A stretch of DNA of 63,985 nt, filler included, from an uncultured Methanosarcinales archaeon (GCA_964550945.1; 4 parts of 4 records of this genome joined end to end with filler, not necessarily neighbours in it), one strand, 5' to 3'. Positions 42,277 to 52,928 are shown, counted from the first letter of the whole stretch. The notes: a model not told the origin generated them from the letters alone. Made by a program: numbers and translations.

Positions 42277-42699
42277 TTAATCTAGTTTTTCTTCTAATAA
42301 CTTTTTTATGCTTGATATTATCTTCTCTGCAAAAACAAGAGCAGATTTAGCTTCTGAATCATCGCAACTTTTGCCATAATATTTAATCCCATTCCTGATC
42401 TTCCTATATCTGTTGAATTCTGATAGGTCATTTTCACTAAAACCTTTTTTTGCGAGATACACTATTGAAGCCTCATGAGAGTAAGATTTAAATCCTTCCA
42501 AATGAAGCAAAGAATCTGCAGCTTCCCTTGCTGATTCATATGCATTCTCAAGTACGAATTTTGGCTTAGACTTATGCATTATACTTTTTGTGAACTCTAT
42601 CCGCTCAAGACTATCTTTGAATGTAGATTTAGAAAGGTTTTTGTCAACACTTTGTTTCTTAACATCTCCGTTATTTACAAAGAATTCAAACTCTTTCAC
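42277..42699 (-). CDS. HEPN-domain protein (MNT-HEPN TA toxin)
   Basis: AYES...SHE...RKIRNGIKYYG; coupled to upstream MNT. Confidence 0.8.
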   Translation of the reverse strand: MKEFEFFVNNGDVKKQSVDKNLSKSTFKDSLERIEFTKSIMHKSKPKFVLENAYESAREAADSLLHLEGFKSYSHEASIVYLAKKGFSENDLSEFNRYRKIRNGIKYYGKSCDDSEAKSALVFAEKIISSIKKLLEEKLD

Positions 42700-43214
42700 C
42701 AGGATCCCTCCAACACAACACCATTGGTAAGGTTTGCTTTAAACTCAGAAGACAAATCCTCGACATTGATTTCATGCATTGTAATTGTTCTTCCTAAATA
42801 TTTCTCGAACTTTGCCAAGTCTAGATCTAGCTTTTTGTTGGTAATGACAGCAATGTCAATGTCTGATCTTTCAATATCTTCCCCTCTGGAATAACTCCCA
42901 AATAATATTACAAGTCTAGGATGGTTGTAACTGGATGAAATGTAGTCTACTATTCCTGAGAGATAGACACTTTCCAGATTATGAAGCCGCTTGCACCTAA
43001 TAAAATTAATATTTTCTCTGTTTGCCTTTACTGTGGTAAGCACTTTTCCTTTTGTTTTGACCAACAGTTTTTCCTTTGCTAGACTATCTGTGGTTGAAAC
43101 TATAGTTGGCATTGAAAATTTCACAAGTCTGGAAAGCTCTCTGAGATGAAACACTTTTGATGGATTTTCCATAAATGTACCAAAGACTTGTTCAATAGTA
43201 GATTTTTCTATCAT
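42696..43214 (-). CDS. wHTH-minimal nucleotidyltransferase (MNT antitoxin)
   Basis: HLRELSR wHTH; LFGSYSRGED...SDIDIAV; ATACCA-AG-TGGTAT palindrome upstream. Confidence 0.88.
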   Translation of the reverse strand: MIEKSTIEQVFGTFMENPSKVFHLRELSRLVKFSMPTIVSTTDSLAKEKLLVKTKGKVLTTVKANRENINFIRCKRLHNLESVYLSGIVDYISSSYNHPRLVILFGSYSRGEDIERSDIDIAVITNKKLDLDLAKFEKYLGRTITMHEINVEDLSSEFKANLTNGVVLEGSW

Positions 43215-43311
43215 TTGATAGATAAAAATACCAAGTGGTATATAAATCTTACGGTTAAAACATATGTTAGAGAACACAAATGAATAATGAATTACTCTAA
43301 AACAGGAGCAT

Positions 43312-44823: not shown

Positions 44824-45383
44824 ATGTTGAAAAAAGATAACATTTACAGGGTTTTAGAAGTGTTGTTTGACGATCCTCTGCCCGAAGGTATTGGGTTTCA
44901 GCTTAGGGAGATCAGCAGAAAGATAAAGTTAGCGCCAAAATCCGTTAAACTGTACCTAGAAGAACTTGAAAAAGAAAGCCTAATAATCAAGAAAGAGCAT
45001 AGAATCCATAGATATCCAGTTTATTATGCTAATAGGGACAATAGTTATTTTAAATTTTTAAAAAGATAGATATAATACGAAGAATAAAAGAATCCGGGCT
45101 TTTGGATTATCTCGATGAAAAATGTATGCCTGAGGTGGTTATTTTGTTTGGCTCTGCTTCAAGAGGCGAGGATGTTAAAAGCAGTGATATTGATATATAT
45201 CTACAATGTGATGCAAAGGGATTAGATTTAAGCAAGTATGAGAAAGAACTAAACAGGAAGATAAACTTATTTTTTGAGAAGAACTTTGATAAATTAAGTG
45301 AAGAATTAAGGAGCAATATTATCAATGGAGATAAGCTTAAAGGATATTTAAGGATGTCATTCTTAAAATGGAAGAAGGCTTAA
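44824..45383 (+). pseudogene. wHTH-MNT antitoxin split by a -1 frameshift at ~45060
   Basis: wHTH in frame 0; the -1 frame continues KIDIIRRIKESGLLDYL...LFGSASRGED..SDIDI, collinear with the paralog at 42696. Confidence 0.8.
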
Positions 45384-46015
45384 TCAAGGTAACTCCCAAC
45401 AAGGAAAAAGCAAGATCTATCTTAAAAATGGTAGATTCGACAATCGAGATGGTTAAGGGTATTGATGTTGCTAAGTTTAGCTCTAATGTCACAAAAGAAT
45501 ATTATGATGTAATCAGAGAGTTGATGAGCGTTGTTCTTTTGCTTGATGGATATAAGACTTATGGCGAAGGAGCGCATAAAAAATTAGTTGAGTATATTCA
45601 ATCCAATTACAAAGAATTTAACGAGTATGAAATATCATTGATTGATGATTTAAGGATAACAAGGAATAGGATTGCCTATGATGGATTTTTTGTTGATAAA
45701 GATTACATCAGGAGGAAGATTAAGGATATCCAAGAGGTTATTGAAAAATTAGAAGGAATTAGTGAGAAAAAGATTGAGAGCAATAATACCGTTAGATGCG
45801 AAGAATGTGATAAAAATTATGAGTTCAGTGACCTAAAATTTAAAAATGGTAAGTATTCTAAAGATTGTAGGGAGTTTTTCTGCCCAAATGAGCATCTTTT
45901 AGGCACAATGCATGTGCAATGTAGAACGCCTTTAAGAAGTATAGGCGAGTCTGGCAAAAATAAATATATCTGCGACAAATGTAAAAAGTTGTTTTTGATC
46001 AAAACAGGGAAGTAA
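45368..46015 (+). CDS. HEPN-domain protein with a C-terminal Cys-rich extension
   Basis: YYD...HKKL...LRITRNRIAYDG; then CEEC, CPNEH, CDKC. Confidence 0.75.
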   Translation: MEEGLIKVTPNKEKARSILKMVDSTIEMVKGIDVAKFSSNVTKEYYDVIRELMSVVLLLDGYKTYGEGAHKKLVEYIQSNYKEFNEYEISLIDDLRITRNRIAYDGFFVDKDYIRRKIKDIQEVIEKLEGISEKKIESNNTVRCEECDKNYEFSDLKFKNGKYSKDCREFFCPNEHLLGTMHVQCRTPLRSIGESGKNKYICDKCKKLFLIKTGK

Positions 46016-47757: not shown

Positions 47758-48828
47758 TTATATCTTCAGAATTTCACCATCAACTTTGATTATAGGATCC
47801 CTGAATATCTGGTCTAGGTGGATTATTGTATAAATATCGCCTCCAAACCAGTAGTTTGAGCCAATGGCAATATGGGCTGTCCCTAAGGATTTCTCGTCTA
47901 TGATTGTTGCTCCGATAATCCTGGCATTTGGGTTAATGCCAATGCCTAACTCGCCTATGCGCCTGACTGATGAAGGATGCTTTGCTCTTGTGGCAGCCAT
48001 TTCGAGAGATTTTTCCAGCAATTGAGCTTCTTTTCCGCCTTCAATATTAATGATGGAGCCATCTTTTATGGTCAGGACAATAGGATCTTTTATCTGGACA
48101 GTTCCTGCATGGTTTCTTGAGCTGCCGTCAATAACAACCTTGCCTTCAACCCTTTTCCCATTAGGAGGGATATACACTTCTCCTGCAGGCAGGTTTCCGC
48201 CTTTTCCAGGCAGGCAGTAATTGCCGTCAGCAGAAACAGCTTTCATTCCCTTGATGTTATAGTGAAGGTCTGTTCCTGCTTTTGTCTCAACATGGACCTC
48301 ATTTCCGTTGTCAAACATACTTTTGATTATTTCGTGCCTAAGCTGCAATGTCTTATAGGAAACGTCAATTGCCGGCAGGATTAAGTTAAGGTTATCATTC
48401 GGGATATCTCCAAGGCCCGTGGATGATATGAACCTATGATTCCTTTTTTGGCATAATTTTCTGAAGCTTTTTCCCAAACCACCCAGGCTGCCTAATTTGT
48501 TAGACAAAGTAATGATCACAATGCCCTGATCTTTTAATTCATCCAGCGATGCCACAACATCTTCATCTGCTGTGCTTGTGCTGCGCTTAGGAGATTGTAA
48601 CACTAACTTTGCGTTAAACTTAAGATCTTCAGCAGCCAGATAATAAGCTCCTGAAAGCAAGGAAGAGATGTTCTTATTTTCAAAGCCGGTATCTCCAACT
48701 ATAAGGACTTTTTCGTCCCTTACAGCCAAGCATGATGAGAATACTTTCTTCAAAATTGGAGCAATATCCCTTGCAATTTCATAAAGATTATTGGTTTTTA
48801 GCCAACTGATAGATTCACCTGTCTGCAT
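47758..48828 (-). CDS. M29-family (thermophilic) aminopeptidase
   Basis: GNLPAGEVY, IGELGIG.N, DEK..GTAHIAIG, HLD. Confidence 0.85.
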   Translation of the reverse strand: MQTGESISWLKTNNLYEIARDIAPILKKVFSSCLAVRDEKVLIVGDTGFENKNISSLLSGAYYLAAEDLKFNAKLVLQSPKRSTSTADEDVVASLDELKDQGIVIITLSNKLGSLGGLGKSFRKLCQKRNHRFISSTGLGDIPNDNLNLILPAIDVSYKTLQLRHEIIKSMFDNGNEVHVETKAGTDLHYNIKGMKAVSADGNYCLPGKGGNLPAGEVYIPPNGKRVEGKVVIDGSSRNHAGTVQIKDPIVLTIKDGSIINIEGGKEAQLLEKSLEMAATRAKHPSSVRRIGELGIGINPNARIIGATIIDEKSLGTAHIAIGSNYWFGGDIYTIIHLDQIFRDPIIKVDGEILKI

Positions 48829-48853: not shown

Positions 48854-49915
48854 TTAAAAGTTGTGGTTTATCTTATCTGGCTCGAAAATTCCTTTTTCTG
48901 TTATTATGCCCTTGATGTATTTTGCAGGGGTTACATCAAAAGCAGGATTCTTTGCTGTGCTGTGCTTTGGCGCAATCCTTACTTTTTCAGGTTTGCCTTT
49001 GCCAGACCATCCCCATACATATAACACTTCATCCTGGCTTCTTTCTTCAATAGGGATATCATCTCCTGACGGGCATTTAAGGTCTATTGTAGAGCTTGGA
49101 GCTGCTATATAGAAAGGAATATTGTTTTCTTTGGCTAAAACAGCCTTTTCATAGGTTCCAATCTTGTTAGCTGCATCGCCATTTGCTGCAATCCTATCTG
49201 CTCCTGTTATCACTAGATCAATCTCCCCTTTTTTCATGTAAAATCCAGCTGCGTTATCTGCTATTATTGCATGGGGGATATTTTCTTCTCCTAATTCAAA
49301 TGCTGTCAAGCTTGCTCCCTGGCACCTTGGCCTTGTCTCATCCACATAAACAAATACCTTTTTTCCTTTTCTGTTTGCCAAATATATGGGGCTTAGTGCA
49401 GAGCCATAGTCAACAAACGCAAGCCAACCAGCATTGCAATGAGTCAAAATATTTGAATTATTTTTTATTATCTTTTCACCATATTCTCCGATCTTTTTGC
49501 AGTTATCAGCGCTCCAATCAGCATAGTCATTAGCGGTTTTTGCTGCGTTCTTTTTTGCTTCTTCGATTGTTTTTGAGTGTTGTATTGATTTATTCACTTT
49601 TGCCAATCCATGGGATAAGTCATGGGCAGTCGGCCTTGTTGACTGAAGCAGATTTAACGCTATCTCTATATGGGCTTTGAATTCGTTCTGATCTTTTCCT
49701 TTAAACTGCAAAGCAGCCTGGGCTAATCCATACGCTCCAGTTGCTCCGATTGCGCCTGCTCCCCTGACAATCATTGTTTTTATTGCATTAGCCACATCCT
49801 GGTAATCCTTTGCTGAGTATATCTCGAAAGAATGAGGCAATAAAGGCTGGTTTATCATCTTAACAATATCATGTTCCATCCACACTGTCCTGTAATGCTT
49901 GTTGTTGATGTTCAT
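48854..49915 (-). CDS. mtnA: Methylthioribose-1-phosphate isomerase
   Basis: MIVRGAGAIG, TRPTA, LTHCNAG, ETRPRCQG, GADRIAANGD.ANKIGT, NPAFDVTP. Confidence 0.93.
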   Translation of the reverse strand: MNINNKHYRTVWMEHDIVKMINQPLLPHSFEIYSAKDYQDVANAIKTMIVRGAGAIGATGAYGLAQAALQFKGKDQNEFKAHIEIALNLLQSTRPTAHDLSHGLAKVNKSIQHSKTIEEAKKNAAKTANDYADWSADNCKKIGEYGEKIIKNNSNILTHCNAGWLAFVDYGSALSPIYLANRKGKKVFVYVDETRPRCQGASLTAFELGEENIPHAIIADNAAGFYMKKGEIDLVITGADRIAANGDAANKIGTYEKAVLAKENNIPFYIAAPSSTIDLKCPSGDDIPIEERSQDEVLYVWGWSGKGKPEKVRIAPKHSTAKNPAFDVTPAKYIKGIITEKGIFEPDKINHNF

Positions 49916-50121
49916 TTTTTCTCAAAAAGATTAACCAATTCGGTGAGTAATCTTATATGTTTATCCTCATCTTTAATAATATCGCTTATGGTTCTAGTAA
50001 TCTCGCTGTTCTTGAATATAACTGTATCCTCTGCATACCTTCTCCTGGCTAGCATTTCAACTGCCCTGACATCTTTAATCCTTTCCAGCAGCTCTGTTTT
50101 AGAAGTTATCTTCTCCATCAT
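49912..50121 (-). CDS. Small half-ferritin-like helical hairpin protein
   Basis: E-x6-Y...DEDKH pattern. Confidence 0.6.
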   Translation of the reverse strand: MMEKITSKTELLERIKDVRAVEMLARRRYAEDTVIFKNSEITRTISDIIKDEDKHIRLLTELVNLFEKK

Positions 50122-50341
50122 AGGTCACCATCTGAATAAGCTGATTAAATAAATAGCTATGCTTGTTAGAATCACGGATTATGATTGTGAGGCTTTTCCT
50201 TATTGTCTCTTTTTGCTCTTTTGTTAATTCTTCAATATAATCTAGGCATATTATAAAATAGCTTTCTAAATCGCTAGCTAGCTTCTCCTCATAATCCCGC
50301 TCATTGTTTAATATGTCCAGCGCTTTTAGTTTATCCACCAT
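50099..50341 (-). CDS. Small half-ferritin-like helical hairpin protein
   Basis: YEEKLA...L..I.RDSNKH pattern. Confidence 0.6.
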   Translation of the reverse strand: MVDKLKALDILNNERDYEEKLASDLESYFIICLDYIEELTKEQKETIRKSLTIIIRDSNKHSYLFNQLIQMVTYDGEDNF

Positions 50342-50442
50342 AAAAATTCAAATAACTCTTGATACTATTTATAACTTATGGAAAAAAGATTACAAAAAAT
50401 ATTTAAATCAACTCGGTTTCTTTGGATTAGAGGTGGGTATTC

Positions 50443-50964
50443 ATGGATATAAAATCAAAGATAAGGACAGTTCCGCATTGGCCTATCGAAGGCGTTATGT
50501 TTAGGGATATCACTACCTTATTGCAGGATGGAGAGGCTTTTAAGCATGTTTGCGATAAGCTTTATGACAGATATAAAAACAGGAATATAAAAAAGGTTGT
50601 AGCTATTGATGCTCGCGGCTTCATATTTGGCGCTGTTTTGGCTTATAAATTGGGCATTGGATTTGTGCCTGTGAGAAAAAAAGGAAAACTGCCTCATAAA
50701 ACAATATCTGAGGAATATACATTGGAATATGGAAAAAATACTGTTGAGATGCATGAAGATGCTGTTTCAAAAGGAGAGAAATGTGTGATTATAGACGATC
50801 TGATTGCGACTGGTGGCACAATATCTGCTGCAATAAAACTTGTAGAAAGGCTTGGTGGCATTGTTGAAGAGGTTGCATTCATAATAGACCTTCCAGACTT
50901 GAAAGGCAAGGAGAAATTAAAAGGGTATAAAGTGTTCACAATGGTTGAGTTTGAGGGAGAATAG
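50443..50964 (+). CDS. apt: Adenine phosphoribosyltransferase
   Basis: FRDITTLL, ARGF, RKKGKLP, LEYG, IIDDLIATGGT. Confidence 0.96.
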   Translation: MDIKSKIRTVPHWPIEGVMFRDITTLLQDGEAFKHVCDKLYDRYKNRNIKKVVAIDARGFIFGAVLAYKLGIGFVPVRKKGKLPHKTISEEYTLEYGKNTVEMHEDAVSKGEKCVIIDDLIATGGTISAAIKLVERLGGIVEEVAFIIDLPDLKGKEKLKGYKVFTMVEFEGE

Positions 50965-51162
50965 ATGGCGAGAGAATATAAAAGGAGGGAATATTGCAAT
51001 GATGTCAAATGCGAGATACAGATGCTCATGACCTCTGAGAAAGAGGGAAGCAAGGTATATGAGCAATTAAGGGATATCTGCAAAGCAAAGTGCATTCATT
51101 CAACTTACGATTTTCATCATTGGCTGATTGATAAGGGATTTTTAATTGTTAAAAAAGAATAA
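50965..51162 (+). CDS. Small Cys/His protein of unknown function
   Basis: C-x4-C...C-x3-C-x-H...FHHWL; tightly coupled in the operon. Confidence 0.7.
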   Translation: MAREYKRREYCNDVKCEIQMLMTSEKEGSKVYEQLRDICKAKCIHSTYDFHHWLIDKGFLIVKKE

Positions 51163-51177
51163 TTGGAGGCTATAAAA

Positions 51178-51951
51178 ATGAACTGGGGAATGAAAAACAG
51201 GATATCAAGGATAATCAATCCTAAGACAGGGCATTGTGTTATGTTAGCGGTAGATCACGGCTATTTCCAAGGCCCAACAACAGGGCTTAGAAATTTAGGC
51301 AAGACAGTAAATCCATTATTGCCTTATGCAGATGCTTTGATGATCACTAGAGGAGCTTTAAAGAACTGGATTCCTCCTCAGATGGACAAGCCGGTTGTTT
51401 TAAGAATGTCGGGCGGCCAAAGCATTTTGAAGGAATTATCAAATGAGGTAATAACCAATTCTATCCAAGACGCTATAAGGATAAATGCCTCTGCAATTAC
51501 CTGCTCGGTTTATGTCGGCGGGGAATATGAAAAAGAGAGCATAGCAAATCTAGCAAAGCTAGTTAATGAGGGAGAAGAGTACGGGATTCCTGTTTTAGCT
51601 GTTACAGCAGTTGGAAAGGATATGGCCAGGGATGCAAGGTATTTAGGATTAGCGAGCAGGATATGTGTTGAGATTGGAGCGCACATTATCAAGACCTATT
51701 ATTGCGATAATTTTAATGAGGTTGTTGAGGCTTGCGGGAATGTTCCTGTTGTGATTGCAGGCGGCAAGAAGGTTGAGGAGAAAGCTGCTTTGCAGATGGC
51801 TGCTGATGCAATAAAGGATGGAGCTGTTGGAGTTGATATGGGCAGGAACATATTCCAAAGCGATAATCCAATAGGGATGATCAAGGCAGTTAGAGCGATT
51901 GTTCATGACGGCAAAAGTGTTGAGGAAGGGTTTAAGATCTATAAGAAATGA
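51178..51951 (+). CDS. lsrF: LsrF-type 3-hydroxy-5-phosphonooxypentane-2,4-dione thiolase (class I aldolase fold)
   Basis: WGMKNRISRI.NPKTG..VMLAVDHGYFQGPTTGL, KTYY, GVDMGRNIFQ. Confidence 0.88.
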   Translation: MNWGMKNRISRIINPKTGHCVMLAVDHGYFQGPTTGLRNLGKTVNPLLPYADALMITRGALKNWIPPQMDKPVVLRMSGGQSILKELSNEVITNSIQDAIRINASAITCSVYVGGEYEKESIANLAKLVNEGEEYGIPVLAVTAVGKDMARDARYLGLASRICVEIGAHIIKTYYCDNFNEVVEACGNVPVVIAGGKKVEEKAALQMAADAIKDGAVGVDMGRNIFQSDNPIGMIKAVRAIVHDGKSVEEGFKIYKK

Positions 51952-52928
51952 AAGTTGGCATTTATTACAATAATAAAGATGTTAGGATAGAAGAAAGGCC
52001 AAAGCCTGAGATAAAAGAAGGCGAGATATTAGTTAAGGTCAAAGCATCTGGAATATGCGGCACAGATGTCATGGAGTGGTATAGGATAAAGAAAGCGCCA
52101 AGAGTTCTAGGCCATGAAATCTCTGGAGAGGTTGTTGAGTCTAAATCAAGCAGATATAAAATTAAGGATAGGATTTTTGTTTCTCACCATGTTCCTTGTA
52201 ATAAATGCAAATATTGCTTAGAAGGAAATCATACTGCCTGTGAAACATTGCATAAAGGGAATTATGATCCTGGAGGCTTCAGCGAGTTTATCAGAGTTCC
52301 AAAAATAAATGTTGATAATGGAACTTATTTGTTGCCATCAGATGTAAGCTATGAAGAAGCAACGATGATAGAGCCATTAGCTTGCTGTGTAAGAGGACAA
52401 AGGGTTATTAATGTTAAGAAAAATCATACTGTTTTAGTGCTTGGCTCTGGTGTTTCTGGGTTATTAAATATCGCTTTAGCTAGATTAAAAGGAGCAAAGG
52501 TTATTGCAACTGATATTAGCGAATATAGATTAAAAAAAGCAAAAGAGTTTGGAGCTGATAAAGTGATTGATGTTTCAAAAGATAAACTAGATGTTAAAGC
52601 AGACAGAGTGATTGTATGCACAGGCGCTATTCAAGCGGTTGAGCAGGCTTTTAATTGCATTGATAGGAAAGGAACGATACTGTTTTTTGCCATTCCTAAT
52701 AAAAATATTGATGTTCCAACAGCAGATTTCTGGAGAAATGAGATAACTGTAACTTCAAGTTATGGCGCTGCGCCTGTTGATTTGAAGGAGAGTTTAGAGT
52801 TGATTAAAAATAAAAAAATTAATGTTAAGGATATGATCACTGATAAATTGCCTTTGGAAGAAATCCAGAAAGGTTTTGAGATTGTTGCAAAAGCAAAGGA
52901 TTCTTTGAAGGTTGTTTTAGTTATGTGA
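51948..52928 (+). CDS. Zn-dependent medium-chain (polyol/threonine-type) dehydrogenase
   Basis: GICGTD, GHE, C-x2-C-x2-C-x7-C, EPLAC, GSGVSG. Confidence 0.92.
   Translation: MKVGIYYNNKDVRIEERPKPEIKEGEILVKVKASGICGTDVMEWYRIKKAPRVLGHEISGEVVESKSSRYKIKDRIFVSHHVPCNKCKYCLEGNHTACETLHKGNYDPGGFSEFIRVPKINVDNGTYLLPSDVSYEEATMIEPLACCVRGQRVINVKKNHTVLVLGSGVSGLLNIALARLKGAKVIATDISEYRLKKAKEFGADKVIDVSKDKLDVKADRVIVCTGAIQAVEQAFNCIDRKGTILFFAIPNKNIDVPTADFWRNEITVTSSYGAAPVDLKESLELIKNKKINVKDMITDKLPLEEIQKGFEIVAKAKDSLKVVLVM

Follow-up and report, generated by a model that had tools for sequence, protein, structure and literature searches.

What does a gene for LsrF, an enzyme otherwise read as degrading AI-2, do beside the salvage genes mtnA and apt in an uncultured Methanosarcinales archaeon (GCA_964550945.1)? 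The window, meaning the whole stretch of DNA analysed (63,985 nucleotides, filler included), consists of four contigs joined by runs of N, and the whole locus lies inside a single one of them, C26. Its features are as follows:

48854..49915, minus strand: mtnA, 5-methylthio/5-deoxy-ribose-1-phosphate isomerase, 353 aa (TIGR00512)
49912-50121, minus strand: small ORF without a Pfam family, in an overlapping run with mtnA
50099-50341, minus strand: small ORF without a Pfam family, in the same overlapping run
50443..50964, plus strand: apt, adenine phosphoribosyltransferase, 173 aa (NF002634)
50965..51162, plus strand: 65-aa protein with invariant Cys/His, of no known family, likely metal-binding
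51178..51951, plus strand: short-form LsrF, predicted CoA-dependent thiolase, 257 aa (NF006081)
51948..52928, plus strand: Zn-dependent medium-chain dehydrogenase, polyol-dehydrogenase-like, 326 aa (PF08240 and PF00107), predicted 5-deoxyribulose-1-phosphate 4-dehydrogenase

The sequence-only reading had described the four plus-strand genes as a tight operon, which was confirmed by their abutting or overlapping reading frames: apt ends directly before the ATG of the 65-aa ORF, and lsrF and the dehydrogenase gene overlap as ATGA. For lsrF, the ORF caller proposed a TTG at 51163; the likely start is the ATG at 51178, with GGAGG ahead of it (51165-51169). The divergence of mtnA from apt was correct as to strand but not as to direct neighbourhood, since two small ORFs intervene and mtnA comes third in its run. 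A sigma-70 scan, a model that leaves archaeal promoters uncovered, found no more matches than chance.

The lsrF product reached 404 bits on NF006081 (cut-off 297) but only 193-205 on the ADH-synthase and 129 on the class I FBP-aldolase models, under the cut-off of each, and it matched E. coli LsrF (3GKF) with an E value of 3e-92, against 8e-41 for MJ0400. With the lsr-operon LsrF of E. coli and Salmonella (PDB 3GKF, 3GLC, 4P2V) it shares the family cut-off, the catalytic and phosphate-binding residues and, for one such protein, about 54% identity (138/256). Equivalents of E. coli D57, H58, K203, Y205, G226, G227, D251, G253 and R254 are all retained, including K177 (Schiff-base Lys203), D31 (Asp57), D225 (Asp251) and the phosphate site H32, G200, G201, G227 and R228 (His58, Gly226, Gly227, Gly253 and Arg254). 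Moreover, D225, Y34/F35, R81, a TAVG stretch and Y179 set the protein apart from ADH synthases and occur in lsr-operon LsrF as well; among short-form LsrF, 103 of 109 have D225. The E. coli enzyme catalyses CoA-dependent thiolysis of 3-hydroxy-5-phosphonooxypentane-2,4-dione, and by analogy the short form is predicted to be a CoA-dependent thiolase. It begins at an MxWG motif corresponding to residue 34 of E. coli LsrF and lacks the swapped N-terminal arm of about 30 residues found in the E. coli decamer, an arm that is a structural feature and not part of the NF006081 HMM definition. The sampled long forms group together as one clade (SH-aLRT 99), which the trees, quick searches of a sample biased to the query, place within the short forms; as the AU test did not reject the short forms as sister group of the long ones (p 0.18), no direction is claimed for the origin of quorum-sensing LsrF. 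Three apparent LsrF-dehydrogenase fusions (P0023, P0027, P0028) were single records missing the barrel end with D251/R254 and were treated as assembly artefacts; the remaining long matches had low-complexity tails or were read-throughs.

Such resemblance, together with the reading of lsrF as AI-2 processing in ammonia-oxidising archaea (PMC11442133, where neither lsrK nor lsrG is mentioned), would favour degradation of AI-2, or of an identical RubisCO misfire product, as in enterics, with incidental neighbours. This is extremely improbable. No FGGY kinase (lsrK), LsrG or RubisCO was found in the host genome, whose assembly is 92.5% complete and to which, as searched, the absences reported for the host apply; the absence of lsrK and lsrG first noticed in the window thus extends to the genome. 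LsrK passed its cut-off in none of 50 diverse lsrF carriers, whereas an lsr-type lsrF locus used as positive control gave 811 bits. Unlike in the lsr operon, no LsrACDB transporter or LsrR gene lies beside lsrF at the locus, a dehydrogenase is its partner instead, and the long forms are a clade of their own. Since the strict link with the dehydrogenase and mtnA would also be left unexplained, AI-2 degradation as the role of this LsrF is largely refuted.

The conserved core of the locus is lsrF with the dehydrogenase gene. A dehydrogenase relative was present in 70 of 80 GTDB lsrF loci, from archaea and many bacterial phyla, and in 19/20 Omnitrophota lsrF regions. By contrast, apt (near lsrF in 4/80 GTDB loci) and the 65-aa protein are optional neighbours. 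The latter is a frequent companion all the same, lsrF starting at most 350 nt downstream of a homologue in 54/80 metagenome loci, as against only 5/80 GTDB loci with the protein. It had no Pfam or NCBIfam match, and an ESM Atlas search returned hypothetical proteins only; C11, C16, C39, C43 and H51 are invariant in 42 homologues, which suggests that it is likely to bind metal.

Phylogenetic profiling and gene-neighbourhood analysis, proposed with the original idea, strongly support its pathway context, and none of the genomic outcomes named as refuting it was observed. Among 251 genomes of the host's order, a dehydrogenase orthologue (at least 59% identity) occurred in exactly the same 15 as lsrF, and mtnA in 14 of these 15 against 25 of the 236 others. 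In 10 of 14 relatives mtnA and lsrF share a contig and lie no more than 5 kb apart; an MTAP match was found in 14/14 lsrF relatives versus 11/26 controls. Beyond the order, mtnA was present in 45/50 and MTAP in 36/40 diverse carriers. About a third of the sampled Omnitrophota (64/181) carry lsrF, and mtnA was found in 63 of these 64 versus 93/117 others. Adjacency of the pair to mtnA is rare outside the host's order (7/80 loci), and none of 30 mtnA loci of diverse carriers had lsrF or the dehydrogenase gene within 1.5 kb. In all these counts Fisher P values overstate, because related genomes are not independent cases, assemblies are incomplete and some loci recur between the sets.

The genes that would feed such a module are present in the host. 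MtnA scored 403 bits on TIGR00512 (cut-off 279) versus 224 on the ribose-1,5-bisphosphate isomerase model TIGR00511 (cut-off 314), and MTR-1-P isomerases were its best PDB matches (E 1e-78), ahead of R15P isomerases (3e-39). Apt passed four Apt models (NF002634, 258 bits > 170). The MTA phosphorylase that was to be looked for elsewhere in the genome is indeed there (MtnP, G000:C13:9894-10643; TIGR01694, 305 > 275). The genome holds 39 radical-SAM family matches and no match to spermidine synthase, which makes 5'-deoxyadenosine the waste to be expected in larger amount. For canonical methionine salvage, neither the MtnB dehydratase (PF00596 family) nor a RubisCO-like protein was found in this genome.

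Likewise, the class II aldolase family PF00596 (Ald2/DrdA), already noted as absent from the window, had no match across the host genome. Complementarity between the lsrF module and PF00596, a family that also covers epimerases, dehydratases and fusions, so that a match is not a proven Ald2, is large but incomplete. The 156 mtnA-bearing Omnitrophota comprised 46 genomes with lsrF only, 87 with PF00596 only, 17 with both and 6 with neither; the corresponding figures for the 39 mtnA-bearing genomes of the order were 11, 14, 3 and 11, and 26 of 45 mtnA-bearing diverse carriers lacked PF00596. In one pair within a genus, the lsrF module takes the very place of the DHAP-shunt aldolase gene (mtnA-lsrF-dehydrogenase-X in G046, mtnA-class II aldolase-X in G149), with both flanks at about 74-75% DNA identity. 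Several genomes carry aldolase, lsrF, dehydrogenase and aldehyde dehydrogenase in one operon, and such coexistence suggests different substrates or redundancy. Because of the co-occurrence with mtnA, the aldolase swap, this complementarity and the lack of LsrK, the lsrF-dehydrogenase pair very likely serves to remove the MtnA product, and because it is found mostly in genomes without the usual aldolase, it is likely an alternative route from SAM waste.

The dehydrogenase has PF08240 and PF00107 but passes no NCBIfam cut-off. By sequence, profile and fold alike, its top match is the ketose reductase/sorbitol dehydrogenase 1E3J, and it shares its fold (TM 0.89) with 1E3J, 1PL6 and the threonine and galactitol-1-P dehydrogenases; its structure model is of high confidence (pLDDT 95), and the fold search names no substrate. 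Polyol dehydrogenases scored 232 bits against 210 for true alcohol dehydrogenases (TM 0.89 versus 0.87-0.89). Residues C37, H56, E57, E142, four structural Cys, GxGxxG and D189 are invariant in 43 orthologues, so that the Cys-His-Glu-Glu catalytic set, four-Cys structural site and NAD-type Asp of sorbitol/ketose-reductase-type MDRs are all present. With Glu, rather than Cys, at the EP position (E142), as in polyol dehydrogenases, and with ADHs scoring close, the protein may belong to the polyol-dehydrogenase branch of Zn-MDRs. The protein differs from these enzymes in its low identity (about 30% at most to solved ones), in belonging to no curated family and in its own motifs WYRxKK, HHVPC and NxDPGGF. 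The basic WYRxKK loop, which might hold phosphate, is missing from 13 Nitrososphaerota-type partners. A plasmid search yielded no orthologue (best 36%).

A coherent pathway can be proposed from these elements. Turnover of radical-SAM enzymes releases 5'-deoxyadenosine in every case; MtnP would split it into adenine, to be recycled by Apt, and 5-deoxyribose-1-P, which MtnA would convert to 5-deoxyribulose-1-P (P-O-CH2-CO-CHOH-CHOH-CH3), these genes being present and their family activities established. The dehydrogenase would then oxidise C4 with NAD+, yielding P-O-CH2-CO-CHOH-CO-CH3, that is 3-hydroxy-5-phosphonooxypentane-2,4-dione, which LsrF, by analogy with the E. coli enzyme, would cleave with CoA through a Lys177 Schiff base to DHAP and acetyl-CoA. 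MTA might follow the same steps to methylthioacetyl-CoA. No description of an enzyme oxidising 5-deoxyribulose-1-P at C4 was found. The predicted product matches the named substrate of LsrF exactly, and we regard C4 oxidation followed by thiolysis as rather probable. A similar degree of belief, somewhat better than even, attaches to the wider proposal that lsrF and the dehydrogenase gene form a conserved two-gene module which accompanies mtnA and MTA phosphorylase and probably stands in for the DHAP-shunt class II aldolase. The suggested energetic benefit for a fermenter is weakened, as searches of the host genome revealed no acetate kinase and no ADP-forming acetyl-CoA synthetase domain.

The same pathway slot might be filled otherwise. 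One alternative is a short LsrF acting as class I retro-aldolase that releases DHAP and acetaldehyde, the dehydrogenase reducing the aldehyde to ethanol (or methylthioethanol). Stereochemistry speaks against it, 5-deoxyribulose-1-P being erythro and the ketoses used by DhnA-type aldolases threo (3S,4R). Such a function would explain the co-occurrence and the swap equally well, and the class I aldolase fold of LsrF with its Lys and Asp general base (PMC2728841), the reduction of known DHAP-shunt aldehydes by ADH (PMC10986504) and the close ADH scores agree with it. It is nevertheless unlikely: the LsrF-specific active site is kept, D251 included, the catalytic Tyr/Glu of true aldolases is missing, aldolase genomes of the same order have no such dehydrogenase, and a partner so specific and so nearly constant makes more sense if the intermediate is an unstable diketone than if it is acetaldehyde.

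Oxidation and thiolysis may also be right with another main substrate, methylthioribulose-1-P (giving methylthioacetyl-CoA) or nucleoside-derived ribulose-1-P (giving glycolyl-CoA), in line with the several 5'-groups accepted by the MtnP and MtnA families (PMC10986504) and with operons holding both class II aldolase and module, one type also encoding another, divergent MtnA along with a phosphorylase of a different sort. This is quite unlikely, given the radical-SAM and spermidine-synthase counts of the host and the fact that only the 5-deoxy substrate gives rise exactly to the named LsrF substrate. A biosynthetic or isomerising role is very unlikely. The diketone is chemically one reduction, of its other carbonyl, from 1-deoxyxylulose-5-P, ADH synthase and DHQ synthase II are both encoded in the host, and an archaeal route from 5-deoxyribulose-1-P to DKFP, with the same phosphorylase and isomerase entry, has been proposed for Methanocaldococcus jannaschii (as cited in PMC6079011). 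But a search of the order's 15 lsrF genomes turned up DHQ synthase II in just 3, leaving 12 without a match, the host has two class II FBP-aldolase matches, and the exclusion with PF00596 is left unexplained. Supply of DKFP for aromatic amino acids and a glycolytic aldolase role are thereby weakened, as is RubisCO misfire by the lack of RubisCO.

Compared with the DHAP shunt and 5-deoxyribose salvage (MtnP or MtnK-MtnA-Ald2; DrdK-DrdI-DrdA; PMC6079011, PMC10986504), the oxidative-thiolytic route would share the entry genes, the predicted intermediate and the DHAP product; it differs in that no class II aldolase was found here and in its predicted NAD+/CoA exit, directly to acetyl-CoA with no free aldehyde. 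As PMC6079011 points out, the known disposal clusters for 5'-deoxyadenosine occur in by no means all organisms, so that there must be further routes; an LsrF-dehydrogenase exit is not among the four possibilities listed there. The impression that the pathway was undescribed held in the open literature, most subscription papers lying outside the search: among the matches listed, none described an LsrF-dehydrogenase or lsrF-mtnA salvage route. We give an even chance to the broadest view, a widespread salvage of SAM by-products by a new 5-deoxyribulose-1-phosphate 4-dehydrogenase and short LsrF, turning radical-SAM waste into DHAP and acetyl-CoA in DPANN and Asgard archaea, ammonia-oxidising archaea, Methanoperedens, Nitrospirota, Omnitrophota and others. 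Most "orphan" lsrF genes, at present interpreted in terms of quorum sensing, would then chiefly serve this salvage, from which AI-2 catabolism may have recruited its LsrF. If true, the module would close the disposal gap for many archaea and bacteria that are uncultured, add a new activity to the dehydrogenases and dispense with a free aldehyde. It would then also overturn the practice, followed in PMC11442133, of taking lsrF in environmental genomes for evidence of AI-2 signalling.

The cluster proposed from the sequence alone, namely mtnA, apt, a small Cys/His ORF, lsrF and a dehydrogenase gene, was confirmed at its coordinates, with family cut-offs passed or failed as that reading had implied, and it lies entirely within one of the four joined contigs of the window. 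MtnA scored 403 on TIGR00512 (cut-off 279), and the curated-model scores led to the rejection of its identification as an R15P isomerase. LsrF scored 404 on NF006081 (cut-off 297), the identity of Apt agreed with the family models, and the dehydrogenase is of the Zn medium-chain type (MDR) and a member of no curated family. The tight operon was also found, its four genes (apt, 65-aa ORF, lsrF, dehydrogenase) abutting or overlapping. Divergence of mtnA from this operon was upheld, but it is not direct: mtnA is third in the divergent run, after two small ORFs of no known family, which had no counterpart among 80 related loci. The surrounding features are as follows.

50965-51162, plus strand: 65-aa ORF between apt and lsrF
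50099-50341 and 49912-50121, minus strand: pair of small ORFs that overlap each other, upstream of mtnA; both carry an ExxH-like motif
47758-48828, minus strand: M29 aminopeptidase-like gene, 26 nt downstream of mtnA
42277-43277, minus strand: nucleotidyltransferase and HEPN-like gene pair
44824-46015, plus strand: second nucleotidyltransferase and HEPN-like gene pair

The two ExxH ORFs may be the halves of a ferritin-like bundle; the 69-aa one gave a weak rubrerythrin match, under the cut-off (E 0.014). The aminopeptidase-like gene, unmatched in the 80 related loci, is probably co-transcribed with mtnA. The two gene pairs resemble, by eye, MNT-HEPN toxin-antitoxin modules, and the nucleotidyltransferase of the plus-strand pair is apparently broken into two ORFs.

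The MTA phosphorylase sought elsewhere in this genome (G000; 1.97 Mb, 92.5% complete) is present on contig C13 (TIGR01694, 305 > 275), adjoining a gene that resembles the phosphorylase's flanking gene in three relatives (L051, L072, L075) in which apt, mtnA, lsrF, dehydrogenase and phosphorylase form one cluster. Metabolism is unusually rich for the lineage, with 39 radical-SAM matches (38 above cut-off) in a 2 Mb archaeal genome. Searches of the same genome found two class II FBP-aldolase matches and no class II aldolase/MtnB family (PF00596), RubisCO family, bifunctional FBP aldolase/phosphatase, spermidine synthase, acetate kinase or ADP-forming acetyl-CoA synthetase domain; the expected lack of lsrK and lsrG was borne out, no FGGY kinase or LsrG being found. 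The 39 radical-SAM matches, the phosphorylase and MtnA, in the absence of the searched exits, thus indicate that much 5'-deoxyadenosine is made and can be converted to 5-deoxyribulose-1-P, without the known exits searched for. The radical-SAM genes are partly clustered (e.g., contigs C18, C22 and C112), and the genome also carries DKFP-route genes for aromatic amino acids.

The pairing of lsrF with the dehydrogenase extends far beyond this genome. Among the best 80 of 597 lsrF relatives in a GTDB scan (from 7 of 64 parts), which span archaea and many bacterial phyla, a dehydrogenase relative was a neighbour in 70 loci, mtnA in 7, the 65-aa ORF in 5 and apt in 4. Within the order of the window, lsrF occurs in 15 of 251 genomes, and the dehydrogenase query matched 17: 15 orthologues (at least 59% identity), whose genomes are exactly those with lsrF, and 2 distant proteins (31-34%). 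The mtnA gene, present in 39/251, accompanies lsrF in 14/15 genomes, vs. 25/236 without lsrF, and an MTAP match was obtained in 14/14 lsrF relatives vs. 11/26 controls lacking both lsrF and mtnA. Co-clustering in other genomes, a further expectation, was observed: 10/14 order relatives have mtnA no more than 5 kb from lsrF, with variable gene order and orientation, and in an eleventh it adjoins the dehydrogenase. From the 80 loci, 50 non-Woesearchaeota genomes carrying both lsrF and the dehydrogenase were picked as a diverse set; 45 have mtnA, 19 have a PF00596 match, and none has LsrK above cut-off, 8 having other FGGY kinases under it (positive control, 811 bits in a genome with an lsr-type locus). 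Order and diverse-carrier counts partly rest on unpublished genomes (G123, G190 and G192 of the 14 relatives; G104 and G168, mtnA-only; G262 and G298 of the 50).

Variant settings were also observed. In L054 (4870-9788), L057 and L058, no MDR gene accompanies lsrF; what follows it is a YciI-like gene, a class II aldolase/SDR fusion, or both, and the SDR may replace the MDR; in L054, lsrF is flanked by apt and MTA phosphorylase. Short-form LsrF proteins P0001-P0013 and P0015 end in long low-complexity C-terminal tails. Long-form LsrF occurs on plasmid records (L364-L368) in other uncharacterised settings, either behind dhaKL (two Bacteroidota), with an SDR and a sugar ABC transporter, or with a glycerol-3-P-dehydrogenase-like gene, an FGGY kinase and a class II aldolase, and this points to additional sugar pathways of the "oxidise then thiolyse" kind.

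Within one genus code, the module and the class II aldolase are exchanged in place: G046 carries mtnA-lsrF-dehydrogenase-X and G149 mtnA-class II aldolase-X. The flanking DNA on either side is homologous, and the swap holds independently of the unpublished genomes; in a second genus pair, G098 has the module without PF00596 and G175 an aldolase adjoining mtnA without the module. As counter-examples, G022 and G245 carry both in one cluster. The 39 mtnA-bearing order genomes divide into module only (11), PF00596 only (14), both (3) and neither (11), and the 156 mtnA-bearing Omnitrophota, an independent lineage, into lsrF only (46), PF00596 only (87), both (17) and neither (6), counts to be read as a pattern and not as a probability because kin are non-independent and PF00596 is broader than Ald2. 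The 181 Omnitrophota genomes sampled comprised 64 with lsrF, 156 with mtnA and 110 with PF00596; mtnA was present in 63 of the 64, and the dehydrogenase in 19 of a sample of 20 lsrF regions. Several Omnitrophota with both have a separate operon including a divergent MtnA.

L342:2901-8890 (similarly L340, L341, L343-L345): nucleoside phosphorylase, MtnA paralogue, longer class II aldolase (333 aa, extra C-terminal domain), lsrF, MDR, aldehyde dehydrogenase

Here the module again stands behind an MtnA, yet it is no simple aldolase substitute.

The 65-aa protein, for which family searches gave no family, has five invariant Cys/His across 42 homologues. In 80 metagenome loci of its family, lsrF is present in 57 and immediately follows the ORF in 54. 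Of the 65 loci long enough on that side to show a downstream gene, 16 are without lsrF, and in 8 of these the ORF precedes an nrdR-nrdD(-nrdG)-like run.

L250:4956-8691: 65-aa family gene upstream of nrdR-nrdD-nrdG, without lsrF (families confirmed for this locus only)
L252, L254, L272, L289, L290, L299, L307: similar nrd-like loci

The protein is an optional companion of lsrF. In L249, L276 and L301, a member of its family faces a threonine-dehydrogenase-like gene.

The NCBIfam family name assigns LsrF a thiolase reaction. The LsrF studied here keeps all catalytic and phosphate-binding residues named in the E. coli structure paper (PMC2728841), including the LsrF-specific Asp251, and departs from ADH synthases at LsrF signature positions. 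In the dehydrogenase, Cys37-His56-Glu57/Glu142, four structural Cys and the NAD-type Asp189 are kept in 43/43 aligned relatives; a sorbitol dehydrogenase ranks first among its matches by sequence, profile and fold, with ADHs close behind. Conversion of 5'-deoxyadenosine to 5-deoxyribulose-1-P by MtnP/MtnA is established, according to PMC6079011 and PMC10986504. From there, the dehydrogenase would oxidise C4 (P-O-CH2-CO-CHOH-CHOH-CH3 to P-O-CH2-CO-CHOH-CO-CH3), giving what is by name the substrate of LsrF, so that its role in salvage would match that of LsrK plus LsrG for AI-2.

Very probably the module disposes of an MtnA product, and we moderately favour C4 oxidation followed by LsrF cleavage, with the 5-deoxy compound as main substrate. 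The chief rival, in which LsrF acts as an aldolase and the dehydrogenase as an aldehyde reductase, fits the genomic data equally well and is considered unlikely. As far as the isomerase, the predicted route coincides with the DHAP shunt; it differs at the aldolase step. LsrF is a member of its family in a locus which is itself not lsr. PMC11442133 interprets lsrF in archaea as processing AI-2, with neither lsrK nor lsrG. No description of an lsrF-dehydrogenase salvage route was found in searches of the open literature. Judged from gene content and neighbourhood, which support it strongly, the module appears to be a real and widespread way of salvaging SAM by-products, a variant that is apparently undescribed.
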